From contig OX597814.1 in NCBI GenBank assembly GCA_951406725.2, positions 84,506,001 to 84,570,000 on the forward strand: 64,000 nucleotides of DNA. The letters run 5' to 3'. Each line of letters begins with the position of its first letter. Position 1 is the first letter of the stretch. Origin of the DNA: Octopus vulgaris. Its lineage: Eukaryota. Position numbers and translations under genes: made by a program. The notes under the pieces are model-generated. The model worked only from the letters and a program-made list of their open reading frames with translations, ran no database searches and was not told the DNA's origin. Below are positions 11,627-12,074 of the stretch, piece by piece.

Positions 11627-12074
11627 TCCAGTACAGGATCACAAGCAGTGCATCAAAATACTTGAAGTATTCCATGAAAAATGCTGATTCTGATGATCAT
11701 ACACAATGTAGATGTTCACTAAACCAAGGCAGACACTCAGCAGTAAATGTTAGCAGTAGACAGAAACACAAGGCCACAACAAGTATGTAGTCAGAGATGC
11801 CACCAGGTCCAAGAATTGAGGTGTTGCGACCTCCTACATGACCAGAAAGTCAAGGGGTGGGTTATAACAGAATCTACCCGGCTCGACCATGGTCAAGAGG
11901 AGAGTGCAATGTGTGACAGCCCTCGCCTCTGCCGGACCAGATGACAACAGTGAATGGCGATACGCACGCCAGTAAGTCTGAGAGCAGAGACAAAAAGTCA
12001 TCAGTCTTACTAGCATACTTCGCTATGCACTTCAAGCATAGAGTACCCTGGTCGTCAGATGCCGAAGTACAACC
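11627..12074 (-). other. DGCR8: Putative non-coding 5'UTR exon of DGCR8
   Basis: GC-richer, non-repetitive island in AT-rich DNA. Acceptor ttgttattcag| before 12074 and donor GGA|GTAAGT after 11627. Contains long hairpins. Confidence 0.65.

Follow-up and report, generated by a model that had tools for sequence, protein, structure and literature searches.

A hairpin-bearing leader exon of octopus DGCR8/Pasha as a probable site of Microprocessor feedback, and a coding hairpin that resembles mir-1306

Introduction

The Microprocessor takes part in its own regulation. Drosha cuts hairpins in the mRNA of DGCR8, and DGCR8 in turn stabilises Drosha, as described for vertebrates and flies (10.1101/2025.09.09.675111; PMC13288104; 10.1101/125997). 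In mammals, one hairpin resides in the 5' UTR of DGCR8 and a second one about 120 nt past the ATG; both are located on exon 2, where they flank the ATG (PMC13288104). There, mir-3618 aids mir-1306 via cluster assistance (10.1101/2025.09.09.675111; PMC13288104). Hairpins in the 5' UTR of Drosophila pasha (dme_422 and dme_474) are cut by Drosha and give few small RNAs (10.1101/125997). According to a 2025 preprint, the DGCR8 hairpins described so far are poor sources of mature miRNA, and their layout, but not the miRNAs, is conserved between mammals and flies (10.1101/2025.09.09.675111).

A mollusc case, if true, would extend this self-regulation, known from vertebrates and Drosophila, to the third great branch of the bilaterians. 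It would come from the lineage with the largest known expansion of miRNAs among invertebrates. Our search of the literature, the scope of which did not extend to MirGeneDB and miRBase, yielded neither a mollusc DGCR8 hairpin nor an invertebrate mir-1306.

We here discuss a stretch of 64,000 nt from the genome of Octopus vulgaris (the window). A preliminary description had pointed to a hairpin on its minus strand, hairpin A (11949..12031; 11950..12030 in that description), as a canonical-looking pri-miRNA and possibly a novel miRNA. Hairpin A is real and of a known kind; the status of a mature miRNA is not supported. Rather than a novel miRNA, the exon context and a mir-1306-like partner favour Microprocessor feedback on the DGCR8 mRNA. 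That hairpin A is a Drosha-DGCR8 feedback cleavage site in the DGCR8/Pasha leader we consider fairly likely from the combined analysis. What is new here is the mir-1306-like hairpin in the coding region. It is also the stronger point and, as a homologue of mir-1306 shared by protostomes, would lend itself to direct tests in many genomes.

The DGCR8/Pasha gene and its leader exon

All exons of the gene discussed here lie on the minus strand. The exon of the WW/heme-binding domain (948..1091) matches PDB DGCR8 with an E of 2e-17 and is 100% identical to DGCR8 of Octopus bimaculoides and Argonauta hians. The first coding exon (1637..2372; ATG at 2195-2193) is represented by contig pieces in two sequencing runs, X6 and X9, and encodes the same N-terminus as the O. 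bimaculoides DGCR8 P0002. A non-coding 5' leader exon of 449 nt, bounded by AG and GT, extends over 11627..12075. One contig of run X6 spans exactly these ends, and the same run contains a GT-AG joint (11627/2372) that connects the leader exon to the ATG exon; hairpin A thus belongs to a spliced leader exon. The runs X6 and X9 are only presumed to be RNA; their joints show splicing. Four of the 24 listed runs were compared, and 20 of the 24 contain the stretch. As to raw reads, run X21 covers neither exon, and X22 covers the coding exon at a depth of about 3-8 and the leader not at all. A coding role of the leader exon is ruled out by stops in all frames, the longest open stretch on the minus strand amounting to 78 aa. 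Rfam matches of the exon to snoU83D and GmglnB1 are at chance level. Across 20500-24500, the observed/expected ratio of CpG is near or above 1, which marks a possible DGCR8 promoter region.

The leader exon folds into three long stems (z -2.85; none of 100 shuffles was as stable). Apart from hairpin A, these are hairpin B (11824..11909, minus; 30 pairs, -33.2 kcal/mol), the plus strand of which folds equally well, and hairpin C (11689..11795, minus; 36 pairs, 7 of them G-U), which reaches -26.9 kcal/mol in sense versus -14.1 in antisense orientation. When 61 windows of 449 nt within 1-14000 were ranked by stability, the first two overlapped the leader exon, and the third (2026-2474, minus) contained the coding hairpin (see below). 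The 5' UTR portion of the ATG exon, which lies within this third window, also folds into stems.

In run X6, 2 of the 449 positions of the leader exon deviate from the window, as against 25 of 736 in the coding exon (Fisher p 0.0005). The corresponding figures for X9 are 11/669 over the leader exon plus 271 nt of intron and 13/736 for the coding exon (p 1.0; differences counted over the whole piece). X9, accordingly, is without excess conservation.

Fold and copy number of hairpin A

Folded alone, hairpin A forms 30 pairs, i.e., an unbranched stem of about 30 bp with an apical region of 19 nt. The fold agrees with the stem described earlier for the minus strand: a basal part GUG-AU-GCGA/UCGC-AU-CAC, a helix of 13 bp (12018-12006/11964-11976), then CUGA/UCAG. 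The minus strand, which is the sense strand of DGCR8, also forms the three G-U pairs of that description. The isolated 81-mer has a folding energy of -30.4 kcal/mol on the minus strand (z -3.78), and 1 of 200 shuffles was equally stable. The plus strand of the 81-mer has the same z (-3.81); for 11949-12031, the folding energies are -32.0 in sense and -27.0 in antisense orientation.

How rare is such a stem? Of 21,308 windows of 81 nt in the entire stretch, 0.65% are as stable as hairpin A, which means that stability alone is not rare. Moreover, a loose scan for pri-miRNA-like stems in 1-14000 revealed 15 in sense and 13 in antisense and thus discriminated neither strand nor region. Together with the result for X9, these numbers could be taken to indicate that hairpin A is a functionless chance fold in a GC-richer exon. 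The z value against shuffles, the conservation of the exon in X6 and the location in DGCR8, however, make such an explanation very improbable.

It had also been considered that the sequence might be a multicopy repeat. It is single-copy: a 131-nt query comprising hairpin A and the 19-nt 3' arm (one mismatch allowed) each have 1 match in the 2.8-Gb genome. Near-perfect inverted repeats stronger than hairpin A are found at 57985-58065, 16369-16449, 32629-32709 and 23869-23949; they are probably derived from transposons. No homologue of hairpin A was detected in the upstream parts of DGCR8 loci from metagenomes, where the best blastn E was 0.4. The RNA model R1 scored hairpin A at 8.3 bits (E 3.6), and compensatory changes are not visible for it.

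Candidate Drosha registers and processing motifs

Drosha works with a ruler of 13/11 nt, and a CNNC motif is expected to be single-stranded and to lie 16-18 nt past the 3' cut. In hairpin A, Drosha would bind at the basal junction near 12031/11949. An internal loop (1x3) where the stem would be cut permits two cleavage registers, and the 3p product proposed in the preliminary description is, therefore, not fixed. In register I, the predicted cuts fall between 12019 and 12018 and between 11960 and 11959, which would release a pre-hairpin of 59 nt (12018-11960). This register displays the 13/11-nt ruler, a mismatch at -6/+4, a purine at +5, CNNC at +17 and a 3' end of 4 nt. Register II is shifted two bases lower (12020-11958) and shows a UG at -14, a 2-nt overhang and CNNC at +15.

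The CNNC motif in question is a CAUC at 11940..11943 (minus). It was said to lie about 17-18 nt past the 3' cut; counted from the cut then proposed, it is at +19 (or +18 with an extra A), and +17 holds only for a cut at 11960/11959. The chance of finding CNNC at +16..+18 in the leader exon is p ~0.15. The CmR/mGHG motif is defined by a C at -5, a mismatch at -6/+4 and a purine at +5 (MirGeneDB 3.0 preprint, 10.1101/2024.09.27.615356). Two of these three features, not the C at -5, are seen in register I, and the motif is absent from register II. The apical region of hairpin A is devoid of UGUG, and a basal UG at -14 is present in register II only. According to a study on fly Drosha, UG and CNNC had no significant effect on processing there (PMC8761633).

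The surroundings of the stem matter. Folds of growing transcripts yield probabilities of 0.23-0.56 for the lowest pairs of hairpin A in RNA ending at 11925-11850. Once the outer stem of hairpin B exists, these values drop to 0.0-0.18, and CAUC becomes paired (probability of being unpaired 0.00-0.02). When the whole exon is folded at equilibrium, the lowest stem is not formed and CNNC is not single-stranded; the upper 21 pairs persist with probabilities of 0.96-1.0. GACCAG/CUGGUC, which had been assumed to close a larger domain, do pair in a 131-nt fold, but are missing from the helices that exceed 0.5 when the whole exon is folded. Hairpin A is, in consequence, canonical-looking only when isolated or during transcription; of the earlier wording, the shape and the sense strand hold, while "canonical" applies to the isolated 81-mer only. 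With the basal stem and CNNC predicted to be lost upon formation of the hairpin B outer stem, hairpin A would most likely be cut during transcription or only in part, a mode that would suit a rheostat.

The loss of the basal stem in the whole-exon fold can also be read differently. The leader exon contains 8 upstream AUGs, two of them within hairpin A, and is not the only one in use: alternative leader exons joined to 2372 are found at 3633..3978 (minus; joint and contig in X6, AG/GT ends) and at 10373..10447 (minus; joint in X9, 5' end inferred from an acceptor-like site). The leader might thus be a structured element that tunes translation of DGCR8 by long stems and upstream AUGs, or its splicing; hairpin A would remain uncut and feedback would be left to the mir-1306-like coding hairpin alone. 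Yet three pri-miRNA-sized stems, all of them unbranched, occur here in the leader of the only gene for which such regulation is known, and one register of stem A preserves the ruler, the mismatch and the spacing of CNNC. We therefore regard an uncut leader as unlikely and prefer Microprocessor feedback.

A mature miRNA from hairpin A?

Canonical miRNAs are recognised by 2-nt overhangs and homogeneous 5' ends. Their arms are RNAs of 20-27 nt (MirGeneDB 3.0, 10.1101/2024.09.27.615356). Like canonical cephalopod miRNAs (MirGeneDB; Zolotarov et al. 2022), hairpin A has a stem of pri-miRNA size and a CNNC-like motif. Unlike those, it is located in a 5' UTR exon of a protein-coding gene, has an ambiguous cut register and is known from sequence alone. 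The 4-nt 3' end of register I would probably make it a poor substrate for Dicer, and little mature miRNA is, therefore, to be expected.

One may nevertheless ask if hairpin A gives rise to a functional miRNA, peculiar to octopods, that mainly represses other mRNAs, DGCR8 being merely its host. The duplex of 13 plus 4 bp is the best-paired part of the stem, is miRNA-sized and is retained at probability 0.96-1.0; hairpin A is single-copy, register II would leave a normal 2-nt overhang, and 90 novel families have been reported in octopus (PMC9699675). Rfam, however, yields no miRNA family for hairpin A, neither at gathering nor at E up to 10. Further, not just the two arms but the entire 449-nt exon is nearly invariant in X6, and the DGCR8 hairpins known so far yield little mature miRNA, as the preprint has it (10.1101/2025.09.09.675111). 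The arm sequences were not found in the literature searched, apart from chance matches to one 12-mer in 5 papers, nor in the readable supplements of PMC9699675, which excluded its miRNA sequence files; nor do they occur in the squid miRNA table of PMC8125070. Taken together, an independent miRNA appears quite unlikely, and feedback on the host mRNA remains the favoured reading.

The mir-1306-like hairpin in the coding region

A further hairpin (2043..2116, minus; z -3.55) belongs to the first coding exon and starts 79 nt past the ATG. It was found without octopus sequence: the RNA model R2, built from four non-octopus invertebrate DGCR8 loci, scores it at 43.3 bits with a rough E of 1.3e-8, and the next match outside the five hairpins has 14.5 bits in 309 kb. 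Its 5' arm is identical to the Rfam consensus of mir-1306 at 17 of 22 bases, which makes it the best site in the window, where 4e-5 are expected in the exon. Gene, strand and N-terminal coding position are shared with mir-1306, the distance from the ATG being 79 nt as against some 120 nt in mammals. At 2043-2116, the gathering cut-off of RF01014 (mir-1306; 70 bits) is not reached, and only the antisense strand is listed, with 14.2 bits. By a DNA search of the genome, the coding hairpin is unique. Homology of 2043-2116 to mir-1306, in sequence and in structure, is, as judged from the alignments, very likely. Another Rfam candidate, mir-367 (24.2 bits versus a cut-off of 54, both strands), was ruled out; its seed region differs.

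As in the mammalian mir-3618/mir-1306 pair, a leader hairpin on the sense strand is combined with a weaker hairpin shortly past the start codon. The differences are equally clear. While the mammalian pair shares exon 2, the octopus leader stems occupy an exon of their own, 9.25 kb upstream; hairpin A and the coding hairpin are 9.8 kb apart in unspliced RNA, a distance that direct splicing reduces to 581 nt. Also, hairpin A is without an Rfam match, and cleavage in octopus is predicted only. The presence of several foldbacks in a non-coding Pasha leader is, in turn, reminiscent of Drosophila pasha with dme_422 and dme_474.

Occurrence in other invertebrates

A protein search of metagenome contigs yielded at least 44 DGCR8 loci. 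The first coding exon was sought in 15 loci with long upstream DNA, and the upstream parts of 11 were compared. Three of them (L031, L034 and L043), for which insect proteins are the best matches with a name, have a non-coding hairpin in common (z -2.4 to -2.8). A model of these three hairpins was run against 289 kb, and the best outside matches were a fourth locus, L027 (E 5e-5), and the octopus window at 2038-2119 on the minus strand (E 0.003). The hairpin is thus present at 4 of the at least 44 loci, or at 4 of the 11 in which the start was located. No such hairpin was detected in L007, L009, L011, L021 and L036 (one related group), nor in L038 and L048. L007 (2501-2576) and L021 (501-575), from the group without the mir-1306-like hairpin, share a conserved non-coding block upstream of DGCR8; it was not counted as a hairpin in view of its weak fold (z -0.88 and +1.01).

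In the alignment of the five invertebrate sequences, 92% of the cells are paired, and 5 of 25 pairs are changed on both sides. Seven cells changed on both sides were reached by none of 500 shuffles, a figure that refers to five sequences only and to a structure derived from the same five. L027 matches Rfam mir-1306 with an E of 1.8e-4 and 29.5 bits, below the cut-off of 70; L034 is not among the RF01014 matches.

Unlike in octopus, the hairpin of the insect-like loci lies upstream of the coding exon (L031:3849-3925, L034:8570-8657, L043:889-973), as if it had been shifted from the coding region to the leader. The homologous reading frame is closed by stops in all three, which implies that conservation is not that of a protein alone.

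Where the hairpin is coding, each of its two arms is mirrored by a short peptide block, and the spacer between the blocks varies. This footprint is seen in 25 of 103 invertebrate DGCR8 proteins (both blocks in 23, the first block only in 2); the 103 are those with a long enough N-terminus, 17 of 120 having been dropped. As a control, 44,138 downstream residues contained no two-block match. Among the carriers with a name are octopods, Mytilus, scallops, two nemerteans, ticks and horseshoe crabs. Similar peptide blocks, again in this frame, are obtained when the mir-1306 consensus of Rfam is translated by hand. Human DGCR8, compared in a profile search, gave an alignment that did not reach the N-terminal footprint region.

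These observations suggest that mir-1306 predates the split of protostomes and deuterostomes. A mir-1306 homologue across protostomes would run counter to the non-conservation stated in the 2025 preprint (10.1101/2025.09.09.675111) and would date the element to early bilaterians.

Proposed mechanism

A cut by Drosha-DGCR8 at hairpin A would sever the mRNA ahead of the coding region and probably limit DGCR8 by negative feedback. Hairpin A, by its position comparable to mir-3618, is modelled as a likely Microprocessor substrate; hairpins A-C would likely act as helpers, and the weaker mir-1306-like coding hairpin would be the recipient. This reading is based on the identity of DGCR8, the GT-AG splicing to the ATG exon, the conservation of the exon in X6, the three stems, the mammal-like layout and the partner hairpin detected without octopus sequence. 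Against it stand the lack of excess conservation in X9, the missing homologue of hairpin A, the lack of an apical UGUG and of a C at -5, the whole-exon fold with its loss of basal stem and CNNC, and the 9.8 kb in unspliced RNA.

A more far-reaching scheme can be offered tentatively, and we would rather not bet on it as a whole. An ancestral bilaterian mir-1306 hairpin in the DGCR8 mRNA may have stayed in the coding region in cephalopods, bivalves, nemerteans and chelicerates, may reside in the leader in insects, and may have been provided with lineage-specific helpers. In octopus, the helpers A-C being in a separate exon, splicing and cassette exons might set the distance between helper and recipient and thereby tune the Microprocessor dosage.

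Other features in the window

Two tRNA genes are located at 24665-24777 and 44786-44857, both on the plus strand, the first with an intron-like insert. The open frames at 39635-40183, 50839-51438, 25381-25853 and 60162-60629 resemble parts of retrotransposon reverse transcriptases or endonucleases.
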